Below, in pieces: positions 7,978 to 17,808 of a DNA stretch of 64,000 nucleotides. This stretch comes from a virus, in the IMG/VR virus record IMGVR_UViG_3300044529_000082, positions 8,299-72,298 of that record. One strand, 5' to 3'. A program made the position numbers and the translations under genes. Each line of letters begins with the position of its first letter. The stretch's first letter is position 1. The notes under the pieces were generated by a model, which saw only the letters and a list, made by a program, of their open reading frames with translations, did not search any database and was not told the DNA's origin.

Positions 7978-8696
7978 ACCCAGATACAGCCGTTGTTGCG
8001 TTTGGATATTCCGGAGACGCGCACCAGATTTTCCTTCTGATGCCATATTATTTGCACCACAAGTGCCCGGTAGTTGTCATGTCTCCCAGCGATTCGCCAA
8101 TCGCGCGAAAAGACACAGACCGCATTTTTTTCCGGCAAGCAGGCAAGCGAGCTTACACCGGGCAGGACTCGCTCGACCGGCAGGTCCTTCAGATGAAGCG
8201 GCTGCTAGAAGAATTCCCGCATAGATTTTTTCTCTTCAACGATTCGGATTCGGTCTGCTTGTCGCCCCACCTTCCGCAGTATCTCTACAACGCGCACGAT
8301 ACGGTCTGGAGCAACGAGGTCTCAGACATGATGCACGTGCGAACGGACCCGGCGTATCCATGGCCCAGGCTCGCATTCCAGCCGCCCTACTTCGTCTCCC
8401 GGGAGACCGTCGGGGCGTGGATTAAAGCGGCCGATGAAGTCAAGGCCGACCCGCAGACCCCGTTCCTCGATTGGTTTTTTATGGCAGCCACAATCCGCGC
8501 AGGTCTGAAGCATTCCAGCTTTTTGAATGGCGAGGGCGTGAGTTGCCCGACACGCGGGTATGAGCCCGGATGCCAAGCCATGGAAAATGCGGTGAAGAAC
8601 CACCGAGCCATTTTCTTGCATTCCATCAAGGACAAGCAGGCGCTGCTCCGGATGGCGCATGCGCGGCTGGCTTGCAAGAAAAAGTTCAAGCTTTAG
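7974..8696 (+). CDS. Putative glycosyltransferase
   Basis: [11 protein letters not shown] (DxD after a hydrophobic strand), C-terminal FLHSIK; coupled to gmd. Confidence 0.5.
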
Positions 8697-8743: not shown

Positions 8744-9241
8744 ATGACAAAATGCTGCAATAAATGTGGTCTTGAAAAGCCGCTATTGGAATTTCGGATA
8801 TGCGCTGTGCGCGGAACCGATTACGTGCGAGGAGGCTGTCGAGAATGTGAACGAAAAGCCCGGGCCGCACAATATGCGGCCAATCCTGAAAAGGCGGCAG
8901 CGGCGGCCAGAAAATGGTCAAGAGAGCATCCTGAGAAGCGAAACGCTACCAAGCGCAGGTGGCGCCAAAACAATCCAGATAAGCATAAAAATGCCGTGTT
9001 GAAACGCACTTATGGCATTTCGTTGGAACAGTATAACCAGATTCTGGCCGCTCAAGGGGAAGTGTGTGGCATCTGTATGTCTGCTACCGTTAGCAATTGC
9101 GGGAGGAGATTAAGCGTTGACCACAATCACGAAACGGGAAAAGTTCGAGGGCTTCTGTGTGGTCGATGTAACAGTATGCTGGGGTTTATAGACGAGCATC
9201 CGGGCACTTTGGAGCGAGCCGCGGCCTGGATTAAAAAGTAA
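8744..9241 (+). CDS. Endonuclease VII-family (HNH-like) homing endonuclease
   Basis: CNKC...CREC N-terminus; YGISLEQY, QGEVCGIC, LSVDHNHETGKVRGLLCGRCNSMLG. Confidence 0.9.
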   Translation: MTKCCNKCGLEKPLLEFRICAVRGTDYVRGGCRECERKARAAQYAANPEKAAAAARKWSREHPEKRNATKRRWRQNNPDKHKNAVLKRTYGISLEQYNQILAAQGEVCGICMSATVSNCGRRLSVDHNHETGKVRGLLCGRCNSMLGFIDEHPGTLERAAAWIKK

Positions 9242-9455: not shown

Positions 9456-10772
9456 ATGAGCTTTTTCTGTGACGACCCTTCAGCAATTTCGGATATCGCA
9501 TCAAAAGATACGGACCGCATAGTCGGGGTCATTGGCAAAGCGTTGGCTGCGAACGCACCCTACATGAACGTAGTTTCCGGCGGGACTTTCCCGTCCGGCA
9601 CTTCTGACGCCATCCGCTCGGTGGTCCAGATGATGGCGGCCCCTGGCGACAGCTATGCGGTGCCGACCTTCGTTTGCGATACCGACATCTGCGGTCAGAA
9701 CGGCGTGCAGGATTTGACTGACACGGTCGAATTCACCCTGCGCCTCGAATCCTTCCGCGGCCGCGGCCCGAACATCTGCGTCAAGAAAGGCTACTCGGCC
9801 TTCAAAGGCAGCTATGTCATGGCCGAGGACTCGCTGAAGAAAAACGTGGTCCAGTATATCAACGCGGATATCCGCGCGCAGACTTACCTCCGCAGCGCGA
9901 GCAAGTTCACTGCGAACGCGCACTACGACTTCAACAGCCTTTTCACCGGCGGTCTCGAAACCGACCTGGGCGTCAAATTCGCGCCCCTGTTGCCTACCGG
10001 CCCGATGACCTTCAAGGCGTTGCACTACATCGCCCGCTATATGCGCGAGGTGCTTTTCGCCGAGTGGTATTCTCAGGACAAGGGCATGCCGCATTTCCGT
10101 TTCATCGGCGGCAGCGACCAAATCGAATACTTCCGCAATGAAGTCGGCGTCCAGAACGTGATGATTGGTTTGACGACTGGTGGTTACCAGCTCGGCGAAA
10201 CCACTCTCACCGCTTACAGCTTCGAGCAGAGCCCCGCTTACCGCGGCCTCGCGTTCGGCGTTGACCAGCGGCCTCTCCGCGCTTCCGGTTTCAATCCGGA
10301 CGGCACGCTGGCCCTGATTAACCCGGTTACCATCGTCAGCAACCCCGCTCGCGGCGTCGCTTTCGCCAAGCCTAATCCTACGTGGTTGACGGCCCCTTAC
10401 GAGGTCGGCACCCTTTTCGCGGACGGCGCTTTCGAGCGGCTCGTGCCCGAAAAGTATGTGGGCGAAGGCTCGTTCAAGTTCGCGCCCCAGTTGCACATGG
10501 GCGAGCTGGAATGGCATTACATCATGGACAACCAGTGTAACCAGTGGGGTGACTTCGGTTGGCATAAATACCAAATCACTCGCGCCTATCGGCCTCTGCG
10601 CCCGCAGCACATCGTCCCCATTCTGTATGGGCGTTGCACTGCCGACCTGGGTCTGGTTAGCTGCATCACCACGGATGCCAGCTCCTACAGCGGCGCATTC
10701 AACTACGTGCAGGTTGGCGTATGCGGTGACAACGAGTCGCCGGTTGTGGGTCCTGGCGTTCCGACGCTCTAA
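9456..10772 (+). CDS. Major capsid protein
   Basis: 438 aa, strong codon bias, own promoter motif and downstream terminator, head-module position. Confidence 0.75.
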   Translation: MSFFCDDPSAISDIASKDTDRIVGVIGKALAANAPYMNVVSGGTFPSGTSDAIRSVVQMMAAPGDSYAVPTFVCDTDICGQNGVQDLTDTVEFTLRLESFRGRGPNICVKKGYSAFKGSYVMAEDSLKKNVVQYINADIRAQTYLRSASKFTANAHYDFNSLFTGGLETDLGVKFAPLLPTGPMTFKALHYIARYMREVLFAEWYSQDKGMPHFRFIGGSDQIEYFRNEVGVQNVMIGLTTGGYQLGETTLTAYSFEQSPAYRGLAFGVDQRPLRASGFNPDGTLALINPVTIVSNPARGVAFAKPNPTWLTAPYEVGTLFADGAFERLVPEKYVGEGSFKFAPQLHMGELEWHYIMDNQCNQWGDFGWHKYQITRAYRPLRPQHIVPILYGRCTADLGLVSCITTDASSYSGAFNYVQVGVCGDNESPVVGPGVPTL

Positions 10773-10830
10773 TCCGGCACACATTACTTTGATGCTGTTT
10801 CTGACAGCATCGGGGTAGGGAACCAAAACA

Positions 10831-10862
10831 AAGGGCCGGGGCACTTAGGCCCCGGCCCTTTT
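10831..10862 (+). terminator. Rho-independent terminator after capsid gene
   Basis: aagggccggggc-actta-ggccccggcccttTT hairpin. Confidence 0.8.
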
Positions 10863-10881
10863 AGCTTAGGTAGAAAAATTT

Positions 10882-11754
10882 ATGGCCATTGACAATCTCA
10901 GTCCTGCGCAGGGGGACACACAGTATAATCTCCTCTGGAAGCTCTTGAAGGGCTTCTATACTGGCACTTTTAGCAGCGGAGGCGGCGGAGGGGGCGGCGG
11001 CGCGGTTACTATCGCGGATGGCGCGGACGTCGCAGTAGGCGCCACTACTGATAGCCCAGCAACCAATACGGCTCTCCCCGGAACTGTAATGGGATGGCTG
11101 AAGGGAATAAGTTTTCTCCTTCAATCCGGGTCTTTTGAGGTCAAGCAAGCGAGCGCCCCACAACTGAATGCTACAGTGGTCCAGGGCAACGGCGCGAATT
11201 TGAATGCTACGGTGGTTCAAGCCGCGGCGGCCAATCTGAATGCTACGGTAGTTCAAGCCACGGCGGCCAATCTGAACGCGACGGTTATCGGCAATGTCGG
11301 CGGCTACACCACGGTAATTAAAGACACCACTGCGGTTAGCACGTCCCCCGCTTACTCGGCGGGCGACGCGGTCGGCGCGAAGCGCACCATTGCAAACGCG
11401 GTGCGCACCCAAGGAACCGGGGTCCTCGAATCAGTAACTATTCTTGACCGGGCAAACCAGAAAGCGGGAATGACGCTTTTCATTTTTGACGCGGACCCTT
11501 CGGCGGCGACAATTACGGACAACGCGGCTTTCGTGTTTAGCACGGATGACGTGAAGGTGATTGCGCAAGTCAACATTGCATCCAGTGACTACGTCACTAC
11601 TAACAGCAAAGCAGTGGCCCAGAAAACCGGTCTCGGCGTCGCGTTGAAAGTCGCCAGTGGGACAACGCTATACGCGGCCCTCGTCACGACCGGAACGCCT
11701 ACGTTTGCGGCTACGACTGACGTGCAACTGGAATACGGGATACTCCAGGATTAA
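10882..11754 (+). CDS. Virion structural or decoration protein with 12-aa repeats
   Basis: 290 aa, poly-Gly linker, 4x (N/Q)LNATV repeats, beta-rich C-terminus. Confidence 0.55.
   Translation: MAIDNLSPAQGDTQYNLLWKLLKGFYTGTFSSGGGGGGGGAVTIADGADVAVGATTDSPATNTALPGTVMGWLKGISFLLQSGSFEVKQASAPQLNATVVQGNGANLNATVVQAAAANLNATVVQATAANLNATVIGNVGGYTTVIKDTTAVSTSPAYSAGDAVGAKRTIANAVRTQGTGVLESVTILDRANQKAGMTLFIFDADPSAATITDNAAFVFSTDDVKVIAQVNIASSDYVTTNSKAVAQKTGLGVALKVASGTTLYAALVTTGTPTFAATTDVQLEYGILQD
11161..11290 (+). repeat. 36-nt coding tandem repeat, about 3.5 units
   Basis: N-A-T codons at 11167, 11203, 11239 and 11275. Confidence 0.85.
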
Positions 11755-11978
11755 TGACAATTCAAGAGCATCATGTCCCCATAATTGCATCCGCGAATCT
11801 CGGCCTGGGTGGACTGTCCGTTCTGGTTTCTCAAATCGTCCCGCATCTTGCCACTATCGCGGTGCTGTTGCAGATAGCCGTGGCCGCGGTTTCGCTATGG
11901 CAGATGCTCAAGAAAAAATCGACCAATGAAAAAAACGTTCCCACAAATCCCGAAAGCCCGAAAACTAAATCCGATTGA
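11754..11978 (+). CDS. Putative holin / small membrane protein
   Basis: 74 aa, two hydrophobic segments, basic C-terminus, adjacent to the spanin-like gene. Confidence 0.5.
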   Translation: MTIQEHHVPIIASANLGLGGLSVLVSQIVPHLATIAVLLQIAVAAVSLWQMLKKKSTNEKNVPTNPESPKTKSD

Positions 11979-13170
11979 ATTGCGCGGTTCGACGGCTTGG
12001 CTAGGACTCACAAAAGGAAAGCGAACCCAGATAGACGCTGAAGACTTAGGTCGCGTAGCCGCCTTTCGGTGGAGCGTATCTTTGGCGGGTCCAGGAAAGC
12101 CTTACGCCAGGACGGCGTCCTCTGGCGAATCGATAGCGATGCATAGAATGCTGGCAGGAGCCTCTGCGGGAATGGACGTGGACCACATAAACGGAGATAC
12201 GTTAGACAATCGAAAAGAAAATCTTCGGGTGAGCACGCACGCAGAAAACTGCCGTAATCAAAAACCAAGAGCCGCGCATGGTCTCAAGGGGGTCTCGTTT
12301 AAGCCCGCCGATAGCTCAGGAAAGCCTTGGGCAGCCACTTTGCATCTGGGGCATTTTTCTACAAAAGAATTGGCAGCCAGGGCTTATGACAAGGCCGCCG
12401 TGTTTTTCTGTGGAAAATTTGCTAGATTGAATTATCCAATAGCACTAGGTATTCTAATGCTGGGACTTACTGGTTGCGGAATTTTGCCTAAACGTGTAGA
12501 ATTTTTTCAGGACAAGGTCCAGAGGTTTCCTGTCCCGGCATCTAAGCAAATAGAATTGCAGCGCGAGGTAGCGCGCAAGGCCAATGACAAGGCAGCGGAG
12601 ACCCTGCATCAAGCCATCAAAGAGAATTCGAGCCCCACGCTCTTGGTGCCCGCGGCAGAGACCGAGAAATTAACGGCTGCGGTAGCGGAATCAGTCGGCG
12701 CTCCTGCCAAATCACCGGCCAAGCTGGAAACGGACGCGCTAATCACCGACCTGCGCGCGCAGATGGCGAAGCTCGATAATAAGGTGACGGAGTTCGTGAA
12801 AGACAACAATGAAAACGCCGGAAAAAAGATTGAGGGAACGGGTCTGGTTCAAGTTCCTTATTTTGCTTGGACTGGCGGCATCCTGGTTTTTCTTCTTGTT
12901 GGCTGGTATATTCTGCGGACTGTGGCTGGGGCAGCCGCATTGGCCAACCCCGGAGCTGCCGTGGGTGTTGGTGCGATGAACGTCGCGGGCTCAGTTGTCA
13001 GCAAAGCTTTTCAGCAGGTTGTTAAAGGCGGCGAGGAGTTCAAGGACTGGGTAGGCAAGGAAATCAACGACCCGGCGCTAAAGCAAAAAGTTTTGGACGC
13101 GTTTACCGCCGCGCACAAGGAAACCCAGGACCAGGATGTTAAGAGCTTGGTGGACCACGTAATCAAATAA
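11926..13170 (+). CDS. HNH-AP2 endonuclease fused in-frame to a lipoprotein with C-terminal TM (unimolecular spanin-like)
   Basis: MHRML..VDHINGDTLDNRKENLR (HNH), LGHFSTKELAARAYDKAA..ARLNYP (AP2), then IALGILMLGLTGC lipobox, coiled coil and TM FAWTGGILVFLLVGWYIL. Confidence 0.75.
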   Translation: MKKTFPQIPKARKLNPIELRGSTAWLGLTKGKRTQIDAEDLGRVAAFRWSVSLAGPGKPYARTASSGESIAMHRMLAGASAGMDVDHINGDTLDNRKENLRVSTHAENCRNQKPRAAHGLKGVSFKPADSSGKPWAATLHLGHFSTKELAARAYDKAAVFFCGKFARLNYPIALGILMLGLTGCGILPKRVEFFQDKVQRFPVPASKQIELQREVARKANDKAAETLHQAIKENSSPTLLVPAAETEKLTAAVAESVGAPAKSPAKLETDALITDLRAQMAKLDNKVTEFVKDNNENAGKKIEGTGLVQVPYFAWTGGILVFLLVGWYILRTVAGAAALANPGAAVGVGAMNVAGSVVSKAFQQVVKGGEEFKDWVGKEINDPALKQKVLDAFTAAHKETQDQDVKSLVDHVIK

Positions 13171-13173
13171 TTT

Positions 13174-14298
13174 ATGCCTGACGGAAATAACTGCACGAGC
13201 TGCGGAGACGGGGACCAAAATCCCAATCCGCTAGACGCGTGCACGCGAAGCTTCATGGGCTGCGACAACCCGTGCGCCATAACGCAGCAGAACACGGTCG
13301 CGTGTGAGTCTCTTCCCTCGCGCGTCGAGAACTTCACGAAGAACTTTTTCGGCGATGTCATTCGAACCGAAGTAAACGGTCAGGTCATTTGGTCGTTGCC
13401 GTGCGGGCTCGATATCGGCCTGCCGAGCAACCCGCGCGGCGCGGACGAAGGGCTCGCGTGCTATTTTCTGCGGCTGTTCAATGACGGTATCGTGGGCCTC
13501 ACCGGTCCCGCCGGGGCAGCGGGGGCTCAAGGTCCGGCGGGCCACAACGCTTACACCGTCACGCTCCAGGGATTCAACACCCCGGCGGTCGGCGGAAGTG
13601 TAACGGTCTCGACATTCTACAATCCGGCCATGCTAGTGGGCGCCTACGTCCTAGTGGACACTTCGGGATGGTATATCATAACCGGCTCGAATGGCCTAGG
13701 CGTGCTCACTTTGCAACTCATTATCGCGGCGCCCGGCGCAGGATACACGACTGCGGGAAAGCTGGTCGTCCCCTCGGGGGCGCCCGGCCAGTCGATTACC
13801 GGCCCAAAAGGCGATATGGGAGATACCGGCCCGCGCGGCGGGGTCGGCCCGCAAGGCGCCACCGGCCCAAAGGGGGACACCGGTCCGGCCGGAGACAGCT
13901 TTCTCGCCAACAACGGCTATGTATCGGGCTCCGGCGGTAGCGACTTTAACATTCCGAACAACACATTTACCACGGTGAATTTTGGAACGGATTTCGGATT
14001 TGACACCACCGCGCAGGGAACATATTTTGTGATTACAACGTTCGGAGTCGTCAACGGTTCTGCGTCTCCGGCGACCGCGACGTTCCAGCTTTTCAATGCA
14101 ACCGACTCAATTTCGCATCCGGGCTCGCAGTCTCAGGTTTATTTGCTGGCCGGGGAAGAGGCTTCCGTGACTGTCACTGACTTAATCGCTCCTACAGGAA
14201 TAAATAAGCACATCGTATTGCAGGGGTCTTCGACAACGGCCGCAGCCAATTCAGTTGTCGCGGCGCACTCGGCGATGGTGCATTTCCAAATCGCGTAA
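13174..14298 (+). CDS. Collagen-repeat tail fibre protein 1
   Basis: Gly-X-Y runs (GPKGDMGDTGPRG...), Cys-rich N-terminus, beta-rich head. Confidence 0.7.
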   Translation: MPDGNNCTSCGDGDQNPNPLDACTRSFMGCDNPCAITQQNTVACESLPSRVENFTKNFFGDVIRTEVNGQVIWSLPCGLDIGLPSNPRGADEGLACYFLRLFNDGIVGLTGPAGAAGAQGPAGHNAYTVTLQGFNTPAVGGSVTVSTFYNPAMLVGAYVLVDTSGWYIITGSNGLGVLTLQLIIAAPGAGYTTAGKLVVPSGAPGQSITGPKGDMGDTGPRGGVGPQGATGPKGDTGPAGDSFLANNGYVSGSGGSDFNIPNNTFTTVNFGTDFGFDTTAQGTYFVITTFGVVNGSASPATATFQLFNATDSISHPGSQSQVYLLAGEEASVTVTDLIAPTGINKHIVLQGSSTTAAANSVVAAHSAMVHFQIA

Positions 14299-15453
14299 AT
14301 GAGCTGCAATCAAAATCCTCTTGACCCTTGCACTCGCAGCTTCATGCAATGCGATAATCCGTGCAACACTCACGAGCCGTGCAAGGAGTTGCTGCCGACC
14401 CAAATCGATACCTTTATCACGCAGTTTTTCGGGCAGCTTGGAAAGGCCAATTCAAACGGCTCTGTTGCATGGACGCTTCCCTGCGGATTAGACTCCGGCA
14501 CATCCGCGAATCCTCGGCAGGCAGGCGAGAGTTTGGCGTGCTATTTTCTCCGGCTCATGCAGGCCGGGCTGGCGGGAATCTCAGGTCTCCCAGGCGAGGA
14601 CGGGCAGGCGGGCGTCCCCGGACCGGACGCCTTCACCTACACGGAGCAGGATTTTTCTCAGCCCAGTGTAGCCAGTCCCTACTTATCGGTGAAGCTGCAT
14701 CCTTCCGCTTCGCTGGTAACCGGTCTATATGTGGAAATCGCCGGGTCGGGAATCTATCAGATTTTGAATCTCGCGGCGGACGGAACCGCGCTGCTTCAGC
14801 TCTTGACTGCGCTCGCCGCAGAGGGTTCTGTCATTCCTTCCGGCGCCACGGTCATAGCTTCCGGTTTTCCGGGCGTGCGTGTGCAAGGTCCACAAGGAGA
14901 AAAGGGCGACACCGGGCTTCAGGGGCCTCAAGGATTCATCGGCGCTACCGGGATAAAGGGCTCGCAGGGCGACCAAGGCGCCGAGGTTCCGTTAGTGAGT
15001 GGAAAATCGCTTTTTACTTCCGGCTCTTTTGTGGCCATTCCGAATACGGCTACCTGGGTCGCTCTGGCGTCTCCTCCTGATAGCCGATTTGTTGCGCCCA
15101 CCACAGATGCAGCGACGTATTTTGTCATATTCATATTGTTCCCCGGCTTGCTGGCCCAGGGAAGTTACCCTCCGGTCGCACACGGCGGTCTGCGGATGAA
15201 AATCAAGAAATTTGATGGAGCGGTCGAGGTCGGAGACGAAGACGGAACACTGCGCTACTGGGAATATAACACCACCCAGATACCGATGCCGTCTGAGTTC
15301 GTTTTGCAGATTTATCGACAGTGTGTTATTCCTTTTTTTGCGGTAAATAACGCCGGAGAATCTGGAAACTGGATACCCTACTATTATAGCGAGGTTACCG
15401 GTGATGGTTACGCTGGGTCTAGGGGGTCCATGGCAATCTGGTTTAAATTATGA
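14299..15453 (+). CDS. Collagen-repeat tail fibre protein 2, paralog of fibre 1
   Basis: Shares NPLDxCTRSFMxCDNPC, WxLPCGLD and LACYFLRL with fibre 1; Gly-X-Y runs; different C-terminus. Confidence 0.7.
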   Translation: MSCNQNPLDPCTRSFMQCDNPCNTHEPCKELLPTQIDTFITQFFGQLGKANSNGSVAWTLPCGLDSGTSANPRQAGESLACYFLRLMQAGLAGISGLPGEDGQAGVPGPDAFTYTEQDFSQPSVASPYLSVKLHPSASLVTGLYVEIAGSGIYQILNLAADGTALLQLLTALAAEGSVIPSGATVIASGFPGVRVQGPQGEKGDTGLQGPQGFIGATGIKGSQGDQGAEVPLVSGKSLFTSGSFVAIPNTATWVALASPPDSRFVAPTTDAATYFVIFILFPGLLAQGSYPPVAHGGLRMKIKKFDGAVEVGDEDGTLRYWEYNTTQIPMPSEFVLQIYRQCVIPFFAVNNAGESGNWIPYYYSEVTGDGYAGSRGSMAIWFKL

Positions 15454-15671
15454 GCGACCGAATGTCACAGAGCGTGGGAAAATGCACGCCAATAATTCGA
15501 GACACGAAAGCTGGGTATTCGAACGACCCGAGCGTCCCCGCGCCGCACGTTGGCGGTTTGTTGTCGCATGACTGCAAGCGGGAGCGCGGCGGGACAAAGA
15601 CGGCTGGGGTGAAGCCCTATGTCTTGACGGTCAAAAACATCGATAACGAGGAAATGTTGCCGCCTCTCTGA
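15450..15671 (+). CDS. Hypothetical protein
   Basis: 73 aa, ATGA overlap with the previous gene. Confidence 0.5.
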   Translation: MSDRMSQSVGKCTPIIRDTKAGYSNDPSVPAPHVGGLLSHDCKRERGGTKTAGVKPYVLTVKNIDNEEMLPPL

Positions 15672-15677
15672 TTTCCG

Positions 15678-15687
15678 GTAACTGTTA
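15678..15687 (+). promoter_or_regulatory. GTAACTGTTA motif
   Basis: 7 nt upstream of ATG at 15695. Confidence 0.55.
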
Positions 15688-15694
15688 ATAGCGT

Positions 15695-16138
15695 ATGAGT
15701 GAAATTGATTTAGGCGTGTCGGCAAAAGACAAATATGAAATTTCCAGCCCCACGGAAATGGGCAAGGAAAAGGTATATCCGTGCTTCCATTACTGCGGTC
15801 CGGTCGAGCTTGATTTGCCGGACGAGGGTGAAATGACAATTCGGTTTCGCAAGAAGCGCGAAGCGTCCTCAGTCGAGGAAGACGGTTCGCACTGGTATGA
15901 ATGCGACATCGAAGTCCGCAAAATGCTGGGAGTTGATGGCGAGGAACCGGAGGCGGACGAGGCTCCCGCCAAGAGCTACGACGAGGCCGGGGACGCCCTG
16001 GATTCTATTCGCGACCGGCTAGCAAAACATTTCGGCAAGGACGAAATCGAGGAAGAGCGGACCGGTGACGCGCTCGAAGAAATCAACGAAAAGTTGGCGG
16101 GATTGTTGGAGAACGAGAAAAACGAAAGCTCGGACTGA
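15695..16138 (+). CDS. Acidic hypothetical protein
   Basis: 147 aa, E/D-rich, preceded by the motif. Confidence 0.65.
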   Translation: MSEIDLGVSAKDKYEISSPTEMGKEKVYPCFHYCGPVELDLPDEGEMTIRFRKKREASSVEEDGSHWYECDIEVRKMLGVDGEEPEADEAPAKSYDEAGDALDSIRDRLAKHFGKDEIEEERTGDALEEINEKLAGLLENEKNESSD

Positions 16139-17151
16139 TGTTCATTCTGGACGATATTTGGGACGAGGCTAAGCACATTATGGGCTCTTGCCCAGACACG
16201 CGCCTGCTTCGCTGGCTCAGCGATGCCGTCGCGTTGACCGCCAACAAGGCGGACCTCGACGGTCTTCGTGGATACTTGGACATATGCACGGTCGGATGCA
16301 AGTGTGGCGGATGTGGCGCGCAGGGCAGCACGTGTAATTCTCCGGCTGGGTGTGGTCGGAAGTGCGTCACCCTCCCGCGCGAAGTCGAGACGGTCATAGG
16401 AATCCAAATTGGCGGGCAGCCGGTGCTTTTTCGTGGCGAGCTTTTCCAGTTCCATTTAAACGGGCCGGGAAGTTGCCGGACGATTTGCGAATGGGCCGCG
16501 GATGACCGCGGGCACAATTTCTGCACGCTGCGAGACATAATCACGCCGTCGAAGCTTGTCGCATATCTCGATACCGACGAGGATAACGGGAAAAAGCTGC
16601 TCGTTTATGGATTTGACAAGAGCGGCGGCAAACTGAAGCGGCAGGTAAACGGAAGCTGGGTCGATGGATATCAGGTGCCCACCGTTTACGGGGCCGCCAT
16701 CCCGGACGACACCGCGCCGGAGGTCGCGCGAATCACGAATATTTTCAAAGATAAGACAGTCGGTAATATGCGGTTGGCTACGGTGGACAGCTCCGGCACG
16801 ACCGGAATCAACCTCGGGATTTATGAACCCGACGAGCAGGTCCCAAATTATTGCAGGCTTCAATTGAACCGTAGCTGTAACTGGGTGCGGATTGCGTATC
16901 TGAAAACCAATCCGAATTTTCAGAGCCGGTATGACCACGTGCCGCTGCGGTCCCCGCGCTCTGTGCTTCTCGCGCTTCAGGCAATCAAGCACTATAGCGA
17001 GCGGGATTACGCTAACGCGCATCTGGTCGAAGCGGACGCTGCGCGGCTTGAAATCGAGGCCCAATTGAAGGCAGAACCTCCGACGTATAACCCCATCCAG
17101 GTGATTAACAATAGCTTACCTAGGGATTTTTACGACTACAGCATAGTTTAA
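16138..17151 (+). CDS. Probable head-tail adaptor / tail tubular protein A
   Basis: 337 aa preceding the large nozzle-like gene; contains a Cys-rich insert; called from synteny. Confidence 0.5.
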   Translation: MFILDDIWDEAKHIMGSCPDTRLLRWLSDAVALTANKADLDGLRGYLDICTVGCKCGGCGAQGSTCNSPAGCGRKCVTLPREVETVIGIQIGGQPVLFRGELFQFHLNGPGSCRTICEWAADDRGHNFCTLRDIITPSKLVAYLDTDEDNGKKLLVYGFDKSGGKLKRQVNGSWVDGYQVPTVYGAAIPDDTAPEVARITNIFKDKTVGNMRLATVDSSGTTGINLGIYEPDEQVPNYCRLQLNRSCNWVRIAYLKTNPNFQSRYDHVPLRSPRSVLLALQAIKHYSERDYANAHLVEADAARLEIEAQLKAEPPTYNPIQVINNSLPRDFYDYSIV

Positions 17152-17154
17152 CTA

Positions 17155-17808
17155 ATGATTACTTCACTGGACCAAACTTTGTTTTTTGCTTGGAATCTTT
17201 TGGGTCTAAAAGAAGACCCCAAAGGATTTGAAAAATTTTGTCATCGAATTAGACAAAATAGGACGCGAGAGTCTTGGAGTGAAGACCGGTGGCAGAAGCA
17301 TTTTAAACAAACTGAAATCTGGAATAAAAACAACCCGGAGCAGCGTAAAAAAATAGCCAGAAAAAGCGCGGCAGAGATTCGCGGTCCGGCCACAAGAGTG
17401 CCGTTGACTCCGGAAGAAAGAAAACAATATCGGCGCGATTATGAAAATATTCGTCGGAGAACAGACCTTAATTGGAAGATTAAAAAATACGTTACCACAG
17501 ATATTCTGCAAGCGTTAAAACGGACTAAAAGTAAAAAGCACGTCCGAACCGTCGCGCTTTTAGGATGTAGCATCGAAGAGTTTAAGCAAAAAATTGCATC
17601 GCAATTTACAGCCGCAATGTCTTGGAAAAATCACGGACCGGTTTGGCACCTTGACCATATTCGTCCGAAAAGGAGCTTTGATTTGAATGACCCCGCGCAG
17701 CAGGCTCAATGTTTTCATTGGTCGAATTGGCAATCGCTGAGCGCCTTCGAGAACCAAAGCAAGGGCGCGAAGTGGAACGGAGTTGACTGGAGGTTTCAGG
17801 ATGCCTGA
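17155..17808 (+). CDS. HNH homing endonuclease
   Basis: LLGCSIEEFK, MSWKNHG..WHLDHIRP..SFDL..CFHWSNWQSL..EN..KG; AT-richer than flanking genes. Confidence 0.8.
   Translation: MITSLDQTLFFAWNLLGLKEDPKGFEKFCHRIRQNRTRESWSEDRWQKHFKQTEIWNKNNPEQRKKIARKSAAEIRGPATRVPLTPEERKQYRRDYENIRRRTDLNWKIKKYVTTDILQALKRTKSKKHVRTVALLGCSIEEFKQKIASQFTAAMSWKNHGPVWHLDHIRPKRSFDLNDPAQQAQCFHWSNWQSLSAFENQSKGAKWNGVDWRFQDA

Follow-up and report, generated by a model that had tools for sequence, protein, structure and literature searches.

Organization of the fused gene

We analyzed a window of 64,000 nt from an uncultured peat phage (IMG/VR record IMGVR_UViG_3300044529_000082, 72,298 nt, rated complete), which covers positions 8,299 to 72,298 of that record and whose numbering is used for all coordinates unless another locus is named. 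The plus strand contained a single uninterrupted open reading frame (ORF) of 414 codons at 11926-13170, in which an HNH-AP2 endonuclease is joined in frame to a phage lipoprotein (Table 1). The ORF opens with ATG AAA AAA ACG TTC CCA, and the insert occupies codons 7-171 (165 codons). At the left junction, codon 6 (CCA) ends at 11943; the insert's own end reads TAT CCA, and the ATA GCA codons (Ile-Ala) of the h-region begin at 12439. Residue 184 (12475-12477) is the Cys of the lipobox, and 230 residues come after it. The insert therefore separates the n-region (MKKTFP) from the h-region and lipobox (IALGILMLGLTGC), its length is a multiple of three, and the host frame is kept on both sides. An initial annotation, made from the letters alone, had placed an in-frame HNH-AP2 nuclease in the n-region of a lipoprotein signal peptide, and this anatomy was borne out, as 11926-13170 is uninterrupted and the segment 11944-12438 contains no stop codon.

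A public gene call for this locus (P0002, 340 aa) begins at the internal ATG 12148 (residue 75), inside the nuclease, and omits the lipoprotein's start and the first 74 residues of the ORF.

Table 1. Features of the fused gene, its surroundings and related loci (window numbering, except where a locus is named; TM, transmembrane; MFE, minimum free energy; pLDDT, predicted local distance difference test).
Feature	Position	Strand	Remarks
Small ORF, 74 aa, two hydrophobic segments and a charged tail (holin-like)	11754..11978	+	overlaps lipoprotein start by 53 nt
Native lipoprotein start with the signal-peptide n-region (MKKTFP), where the fusion now begins too	11926..11943	+	relatives begin MKK/MKR
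HNH(HNN)-AP2 homing-endonuclease insert	11944..12438	+	495 nt, in frame, no stop, CCA at either junction
TTG, residue 19, possible coupled start of the nuclease alone	11980..11982	+	1 nt past the small ORF stop; MFE -11.3, A+T 0.70; inferred
HNH_3 catalytic core, residues 81-108	12166..12249	+	Pfam; D-H, DNR, NLR and EN boxes
AP2-type DNA-binding domain, approximately residues 120-171	12283..12438	+	alignment, PDB, model; LNYP end exactly at the junction
GTG, residue 159, candidate internal start	12400..12402	+	26-residue signal peptide with Lys and Arg
TTG, residue 168, candidate internal start	12427..12429	+	17-residue signal peptide without Lys or Arg
h-region and lipobox, IALGILMLGLTG and Cys184	12439..12477	+	hydrophobicity 2.17 vs family mean 2.18
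Mature lipoprotein	12478..13170	+	three-helix periplasmic part, GKKIEGTG loop, TM helix, 74-residue helical tail
Candidate nuclease recognition region, coding ..PK.VEFFQDKV..	12481..12522	+	DNA conservation; role inferred
Three-helix periplasmic part of the lipoprotein	12541-12816	+	model; pLDDT 91-97 for the helical bundle
Lipoprotein TM helix	12859-12945	+	model; residues 141-169 of the 243-residue C-terminal part
GTAACTRTT sites	168, 9303, 11434, 15678, 23116, 35315, 62024	+	
GTAACTRTT sites	37984, 48008	-	
Replacement lipoprotein, upstream of the tail-fibre gene	L083:11898-12467; L088:5080-5601; L098:9763-10314; L135:10952-11485; others		

Absence of the insert from relatives

All 22 aligned members of the lipoprotein family begin with MK.. 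and continue with the h-region and L(T/S/A)GC, leaving a gap opposite residues 5-171 of the fusion. The insert was also absent by tblastn from 52 of 52 viral loci that carry the family, and none of 80 loci anchored on the capsid gene had it at the insertion site. Its sole match in those 80 loci, a distant one (31% identity), lay approximately 6.6 kb upstream of the capsid gene. The nearest available DNA relative (L002/L004, 79% protein identity) has the same small upstream ORF and an ordinary signal of 18 residues, and the closest protein relatives include P0003, with 82% identity. When the insert is ignored, the Cys falls at position 19, which is one of the two family modes (17 in 36 of 100 members, 19 in 33 of 100). 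The insert-free homologues that the initial annotation had proposed to seek thus exist in every set compared (22/22 aligned proteins, 52/52 loci, 80/80 capsid-anchored loci), and its statement that the removal of 11944-12438 restores an ordinary lipoprotein start agrees with the modal Cys position and the family-typical h-region. These comparisons of sequence confirm that the nuclease segment is an insertion into a conserved phage lipoprotein gene.

The inserted nuclease

The catalytic core of the insert matched the Pfam family HNH_3 at residues 81-108 (38.4 bits vs a cut-off of 24.8), and the insert matched PHROG 99, "HNH endonuclease" (E 5.8e-27). The Pfam match to AP2 was weak (13.8 bits, under the cut-off of 33.3). 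An AP2 domain C-terminal to the nuclease core was supported by a match to the plant protein WRI1 in the PDB (E 3.8e-4), by a full-length alignment with 16 homologues and by Foldseek. Most of these 16 homologues carry a precomputed AP2 domain, and the alignment ends in LN[FY]P. Together, these matches substantiate the earlier description of the insert as a complete HNH plus AP2 domain.

Across the 17 aligned nucleases, including that of the window, 22 columns were invariant, among them ten residues of the HNH core (D86, H87, N89, D94, N95, R96, N99, R101, N108, and N111). The two halves of the fusion were modelled separately. The AlphaFold2 model of residues 1-187, built with 16 homologues, had a mean pLDDT of 85.9 and a predicted template modelling score of 0.71; it was confident from approximately residue 11 to 170 (blocks of 78-98), and the following h-region was not confident. 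The best Foldseek rows for this model in the PDB were I-HmuI (1u3e) and plant AP2 domains, with a probability of 0.90-1.00 and E of at least 0.025 (at least 0.057 for the AP2 structures). The inserted nuclease looks active because the HNH-core residues are invariant and the predicted fold is confident.

The relatives of this nuclease are free-standing proteins of 150-190 aa with identities of at most approximately 54% (470 matches of near-equal length; 86,023 representative matches). Since even the best of them are no more than 54% identical, the insertion cannot be dated. Fifteen of the 16 aligned free-standing homologues end 0-6 residues past LNFP, and one has a long tail. The nuclease of the window reaches LNYP at the junction and continues into the h-region, its own stop having been lost; as judged from the alignment, the insert corresponds to an entire nuclease gene that lacks only the stop codon. 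A hydrophobic segment or lipobox after the AP2 domain was found in none of the best 146 of the 86,023 nuclease matches. The motif GTAACTRTT has nine copies against 0.27 expected, mostly just upstream of gene starts. In the search for a promoter of the insert's own, none of these nine sites lay inside it, and sigma-70 and terminator scans were at chance level.

Free-standing homing nucleases typically cut near, not at, their insertion site. The block coding ..PK.VEFFQDKV.. is the best-conserved DNA in the first 186 nt examined (32 sequences), 43 nt downstream of the insertion point, with a mean column identity of 0.74-0.81 vs 0.48-0.58 in the signal-peptide codons. Its placement fits a free-standing homing nuclease that would cut close to the site of insertion.

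The invaded lipoprotein

The lipoprotein belongs to a family of 212 proteins at E ≤ 0.01, and the 120 matches listed span 135-340 aa, mostly 240-260 aa. Among these listed matches, only the window's own protein (P0002) has a Pfam domain. The lipobox LTGC and the h-region are present and family-typical, with the Cys at ORF residue 184, or 19 with the insert ignored, and a recognizable stretch from start to Cys was found in 100 of 119 family members. Against a hidden Markov model built from 57 other members, the lipoprotein half scored 372 bits, ranking 14 of 57 (range 326-386), and it keeps every family-invariant residue. By these measures, no decay is visible in the lipoprotein half.

The model of the lipoprotein, based on a 26-sequence alignment, had a mean pLDDT of 76. 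In the numbering of the 243-residue C-terminal part, helices at 35-61, 66-86, and 98-126 were confident; a conserved GKKIEGTG..PYF loop was present, and helices at 171-208 and 212-242 were predicted after the TM helix. The initial annotation had placed the TM helix at the C-terminus, which proved incorrect, as approximately 74 residues, predicted as two helices, follow it.

Searches for the function of the family gave no Pfam or PHROG family and no Foldseek match in BFVD at E ≤ 0.001, and a protein atlas search with the lipoprotein returned only viral clusters of "hypothetical protein". In 50,697 GenBank phage records, tblastn found no match to the lipoprotein or to the capsid protein.

The same annotation had regarded the architecture as that of a unimolecular spanin (u-spanin), and this view held for the topology only: a predicted lipid anchor, a periplasmic part, and an inner-membrane helix agree with it, but the helical periplasmic part, the 74-residue tail, and the lack of an endolysin found nearby do not. 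An endolysin-type family was found in none of 25 ORFs searched with Pfam or 10 searched with PHROGs, a giant ORF of 3038 aa and many small ORFs lying outside these scans. A holin-like ORF with two TM segments lies upstream, and across the relatives the neighbours are capsid-side and tail-fibre genes, so that membership in a lysis cassette was not supported.

Kongari et al. 2018 (PMC6139136) described 58 u-spanins without periplasmic Cys. T1 gp11, a u-spanin in the same source, resembles the window protein in that neither has a periplasmic Cys and in having a small two-TM ORF just upstream. Unlike T1 gp11, the window protein has a periplasmic part that is helical instead of beta and 74 residues past the TM helix, and its gene has the capsid genes on one side and the tail-fibre genes on the other; no endolysin turned up in the neighbourhood, and neither sequence nor fold gave a match. 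On the models, "spanin" thus denotes a topological resemblance only and not membership. T5 Llp and Cor are lipoproteins of exclusion that mask receptors. By analogy, a receptor-masking exclusion lipoprotein beside the fibre genes would be as fair a guess as a spanin.

Proposed translation and processing of the fusion

The single most likely reading, to which we assign a probability of about 0.4, is that the fusion is made whole from the native ATG, inserted with its N-terminus in the cytoplasm (N-in), and cut after lipidation. Excision by signal peptidase II had already been suggested in the initial annotation. A nuclease gene of the free-standing HNN-AP2 type would have entered after codon 6, ahead of the hydrophobic core, adding exactly 165 codons. 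Because the insert lacks both a stop codon and a promoter motif of its own, a fusion of 414 residues would be translated from the lipoprotein's ATG 11926. The nuclease domain would fold in the cytoplasm, the uncharged stretch LNYP-IALGILMLGLTGCGILP would serve as an N-in signal anchor, and the remainder of the protein would be exported up to its own TM helix. Cys184 would then be lipidated by Lgt, and signal peptidase II (LspA) would cut before it. The predicted products are a normal mature lipoprotein and a nuclease bearing the spent signal peptide, which would stay tethered to the membrane until the peptide is degraded.

Whole-fusion translation, topology, and cleavage are steps that we infer, and several features of the locus are consistent with them. 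The uncharged stretch comprises 21 residues and is flanked by Lys/Arg on the nuclease side and by Lys-Arg on the far side. A full-length product could reasonably be expected to undergo excision by signal peptidase II, because this stretch, the lipobox, and the Lys/Arg on the cytoplasmic side are all present. If selection favoured read-through into the lipoprotein, the nuclease would be expected to lose its stop codon, as it has. Many inner-membrane proteins, such as ToxR, RodZ, and RseA, have a folded cytoplasmic domain at the N-terminus, ahead of an N-in TM segment.

Several points weigh against this proposal. The insertion is a single instance, and a junction would be in frame by chance in 1 of 3 cases. 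The stretch was found in no listed RNA run. In the open-access literature, we found no published case of processing by Lgt/LspA behind a folded n-region of 171 residues. The intact lipoprotein half may only reflect a recent insertion. TTG 12427 has a start-like context, and the T5-like phages Shivani and phiR201 use a new outer-membrane spanin (o-spanin) start after their nuclease gene (PMC6139136). In addition, HNH_3/AP2 occurs in one predicted ORF with RecU, ClpP, a ThyX C-terminal piece, an M20 peptidase, an SbcC-like ATPase, or Mor (P0402-P0408; 7 of 10 proteins scanned, from 25 longer matches, all being public metagenome gene predictions). Read-through fusions of this nuclease family to host genes seem to recur, and those to RecU, ClpP, the SbcC-like ATPase, the M20 peptidase, and Mor would be beyond the help of signal peptidase, so that a fusion in itself needs no special excision device.

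Candidate start codons and possible internal re-initiation

Shine-Dalgarno sequences are almost absent in this phage, and the contexts of candidate starts were compared by MFE and A+T content. Real starts (n = 41) had a mean MFE of -8.8 and an A+T content of 0.59, vs -14.9 and 0.44 for internal NTG codons (n = 615). Among the 13 in-frame NTG codons up to the Cys, ATG 11926 had the best context (MFE -4.4 kcal/mol, 60% A+T upstream), in keeping with the real starts. The nuclease does not have the start and stop of a free-standing gene, as no stop codon occurs before 13168 and the first in-frame start is the lipoprotein ATG. A coupled start of the nuclease alone may exist at TTG residue 19. Because there is no stop codon, every nuclease molecule from these starts would run into the lipoprotein.

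According to the first alternative, the lipoprotein is translated by re-initiation from a start within the 3' end of the insert (TTG 12427 or GTG 12400), and the fusion is a by-product; the initial annotation had itself raised a separate start just before IALGIL. We consider this possible but rather unlikely. The context of TTG 12427 is intermediate and start-like (MFE -10.8, A+T 0.65, values reached by 16% and 8% of the 615 internal NTG codons, respectively), and a start there would put the Cys at 17, the commonest position in the family (36/100). However, its product would have no Lys or Arg in the n-region, where 99 of 100 family members have one, and the codon encodes the invariant Leu at the end of AP2, which explains its presence with no need for a start function. 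The product from GTG 12400 would have Lys and Arg in its n-region, but the context is internal-like, with an A+T content of 0.35, and only 2% of the 41 real starts are as rich in G+C. A published parallel is the o-spanin start of Shivani and phiR201, rebuilt after the GIY-YIG gene had landed (PMC6139136). On the other side, the longest ORFs of this phage start mostly with ATG, ribosomes reading through from ATG 11926 would probably compete with re-initiation, and the missing stop codon of the nuclease would be left unexplained.

The gene slot and a possible tolerated knock-out

The lipoprotein is always preceded by a small ORF. In 22 of 37 relatives the upstream ORF overlaps it by 4 nt, and in the closest ones by 46-92 nt. 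The small ORF of the window had no Pfam family above the cut-off and no PHROG; in L004 and L005, homologues with 61-63% identity precede the lipoprotein. The last 11 codons of this ORF and its TGA are supplied by the insert in another frame. In both near and distant relatives, the pair of small ORF and lipoprotein is located between the capsid-side genes and collagen-like tail-fibre genes.

The lipoprotein family was present in 35 of 62 capsid-anchored relatives with at least 5 kb of downstream sequence. In the 27 loci lacking the family, a script found another lipoprotein-plus-TM gene in the same slot in 20, and one more (L090) was recognized by eye. This replacement lipoprotein, approximately 175-200 aa long, has a C..PLKPG motif past the lipobox and two or three hydrophobic segments late in the sequence; a small TM ORF usually precedes it. 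The slot looks like a case of non-orthologous replacement of a conserved function; as judged from the gene content of these loci, it seems near-universal, with the gene in it replaceable. Since the slot is filled in most relatives, a knock-out would probably be costly.

These data bear on the second alternative, that the insertion is a tolerated knock-out. In this case, the insertion would be recent or the gene dispensable, the fusion would be poorly exported or processed, and the frame would be open by chance. The insert was found in one genome only among the loci and family members compared, the absence of the family from 27 of 62 related loci marks the gene as replaceable, an in-frame junction has a chance of 1 in 3, and homing endonuclease genes are known to spread despite their cost. 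We nevertheless regard a knock-out as unlikely. At least 20 of the 27 loci without the family have an analogous lipoprotein-plus-TM gene in the slot, the lipoprotein half scores like other members with all family-invariant residues kept, and the missing stop codon is not expected from the random insertion of a free-standing nuclease gene. Moreover, the contig, judged to be a complete 72-kb genome, has a depth of 18.8 with no competing insert-free contig. The insert-free joint was not seen in the contigs of the source run, although contigs drop rare variants and this says little.

Other explanations of the fusion

The third alternative, in which the insert is removed at the level of RNA, protein, or translation as a group I or II intron, an intein, or a segment of ribosomal bypassing between the CCA codons, is very improbable. 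Nuclease genes within genes are mostly housed in introns or inteins, according to published work, and the identical CCA codons flanking the insert formally resemble take-off and landing codons. However, cmscan of 10800-13600 with E up to 10 gave six weak rows of sRNA or CRISPR-repeat types and no intron type, and a ribozyme core could not be accommodated, as all 495 nt code for the folded nuclease. Inteins require Cys or Ser on the N side of the junction, and His-Asn followed by Cys, Ser, or Thr on the C side. The junctions here, Pro-Gln on the N side and Tyr-Pro/Ile on the C side, do not fit this rule, and Pfam finds only HNH_3 and AP2, with no Hint domain. The Rfam and Pfam scans and the junction residues are in line with the earlier remark that the insert has no intron or intein hallmarks. 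As for bypassing, the gap of 495 nt is approximately 10 times the 50 nt bypassed in T4 gene 60, and no stop codon follows the first CCA.

An assembly or sequencing artefact is equally improbable as the source of the fusion, for which the initial annotation had named a sequencing error: although the contig was assembled from a metagenome and the stretch occurs in one run only (probably the source sample, so that a second assembly from it is independent as to assembler only), this second assembly (Logan contig, 64,057 nt, depth 18.8) spans 11500-13200 with 0 differences and 0 gaps, and both flanks belong to the same lipoprotein gene in frame, which a simple chimera or single indel would not give.

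Comparison with known systems

Nuclease inserts that preserve the frame without a splicing element are already known. The ShiLan domain and the Pacc40 insert are "hidden HNH" homing elements within DNA methylase genes of actinophages (Arsenault, Gosselin and Gogarten 2025, PMC11855218). As in the window, an HNH gene lies inside a phage protein gene with no intron or intein, the host frame is open, and the host protein carries an extra segment. In those elements, however, the HNH is read out of frame from a start to a stop of its own (GTG and TAA in ShiLan, where the added host-frame peptide has been proposed to loop out). The present nuclease instead shares both frame and start with the host gene, lacks a stop codon, and occupies a part that is normally cut off by the cell.

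In the T5-like phages Shivani and phiR201, a GIY-YIG homing endonuclease gene lies between the genes for the inner-membrane spanin (i-spanin) and the o-spanin (Kongari et al. 2018, PMC6139136). The likeness is that the nuclease stands at the overlap of a membrane-protein gene and the 5' end of a lipoprotein gene, and only residues of the lipoylation signal differ from insert-free relatives such as T5. The difference is that the nuclease is a separate ORF after which the o-spanin start and signal were rebuilt, whereas the window has one ORF with the old start upstream.

In-frame fusions of rps3 with LAGLIDADG enzymes in Ophiostoma mitochondria (Gibb and Hausner 2005; Sethuraman et al. 2009, as cited in PMC7902536) also join a homing endonuclease to a host protein gene without a splicing element. 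These are organellar and involve another enzyme family and a ribosomal protein gene, with no signal peptide or route of excision by a host protease.

Free-standing HNN/HNH-AP2 endonucleases are represented by 21 genes in the Xanthomonas phages Xp10, OP1, and Xop411 (PMC2248197). These and I-HmuI share with the insert the domain pair, the DNR, NLR, and EN boxes, the size of 150-190 aa, and the sporadic occurrence among related phages. Unlike the insert, which has neither a start nor a stop to itself, the Xanthomonas phage genes are intergenic with their own start and stop. An in-frame nuclease in the n-region of a signal peptide that shares the start of the host gene was not found in the published open-access literature.

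Implications

Homing endonuclease genes persist in essential genes only if they are removed from the product; this is known to be achieved in the RNA by introns, in the protein by inteins, and also by gene splitting. We tentatively propose that the nuclease has adopted the n-region of a lipoprotein signal, where Lgt/LspA would do what self-splicing does for the nucleases of introns and inteins. If signal peptidase II processes the fusion, it would provide an added route that needs no self-splicing sequence. A parasite would be removed from an important late protein after translation, without the sequence cost of a ribozyme or Hint domain, and the nuclease would be set free with a membrane tether that has been cut and can be degraded. 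Should the route prove general, signal peptides would constitute a third type of refuge for selfish genes inside coding regions. Lgt and LspA would also have to accept a precursor with a folded N-terminal domain of 170 residues, which would matter in practice to the engineering of lipoproteins and to signal-peptide predictors, as the latter would miss such genes. If the lipoprotein instead restarts within the insert, the locus would be a further example of the known pattern in which a nuclease gene restores the end of the gene that it has interrupted. Either way, this locus and the T5-like spanin case would indicate that homing nucleases land repeatedly at the 5' ends of phage lipoprotein genes.

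Genome mosaicism and other nuclease genes

The region 9456-17151 is mosaic in comparison with L056, L005, and L004: the capsid protein is 93-97% identical, and the 290-aa protein, the small ORF, the lipoprotein, and the fibres are 44-79% identical. In L056, the capsid protein is 93% identical and the lipoprotein only 49%. The 290-aa protein (10882-11754), whose gene separates the capsid gene from the small ORF, has a run of Gly and repeats of the unit NLNATVVQ. It had no Pfam or PHROG match, and its N-terminal half is variable among the relatives. One GTAACTRTT site (11434-11442) lies within its gene, approximately 310 nt before the small ORF.

Further free-standing nuclease genes were identified at 8744-9241 (Endonuclease VII; Pfam E 6.5e-22) and 17155-17808 (endonuclease VII-like by PHROG). 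The former has a counterpart in two of seven relatives compared, and this patchy occurrence, together with the other nucleases, suggests that the phage carries several mobile nuclease genes.

More distant members of the lipoprotein family (31-37% identity) were found on L136-L144, where seven of nine metagenome-assembled genome labels were Puniceicoccales or Opitutales (Verrucomicrobiota). The other labels were Dependentiae and Sediminibacterium; these labels may hint at hosts of the wider phage group and were not used as evidence.

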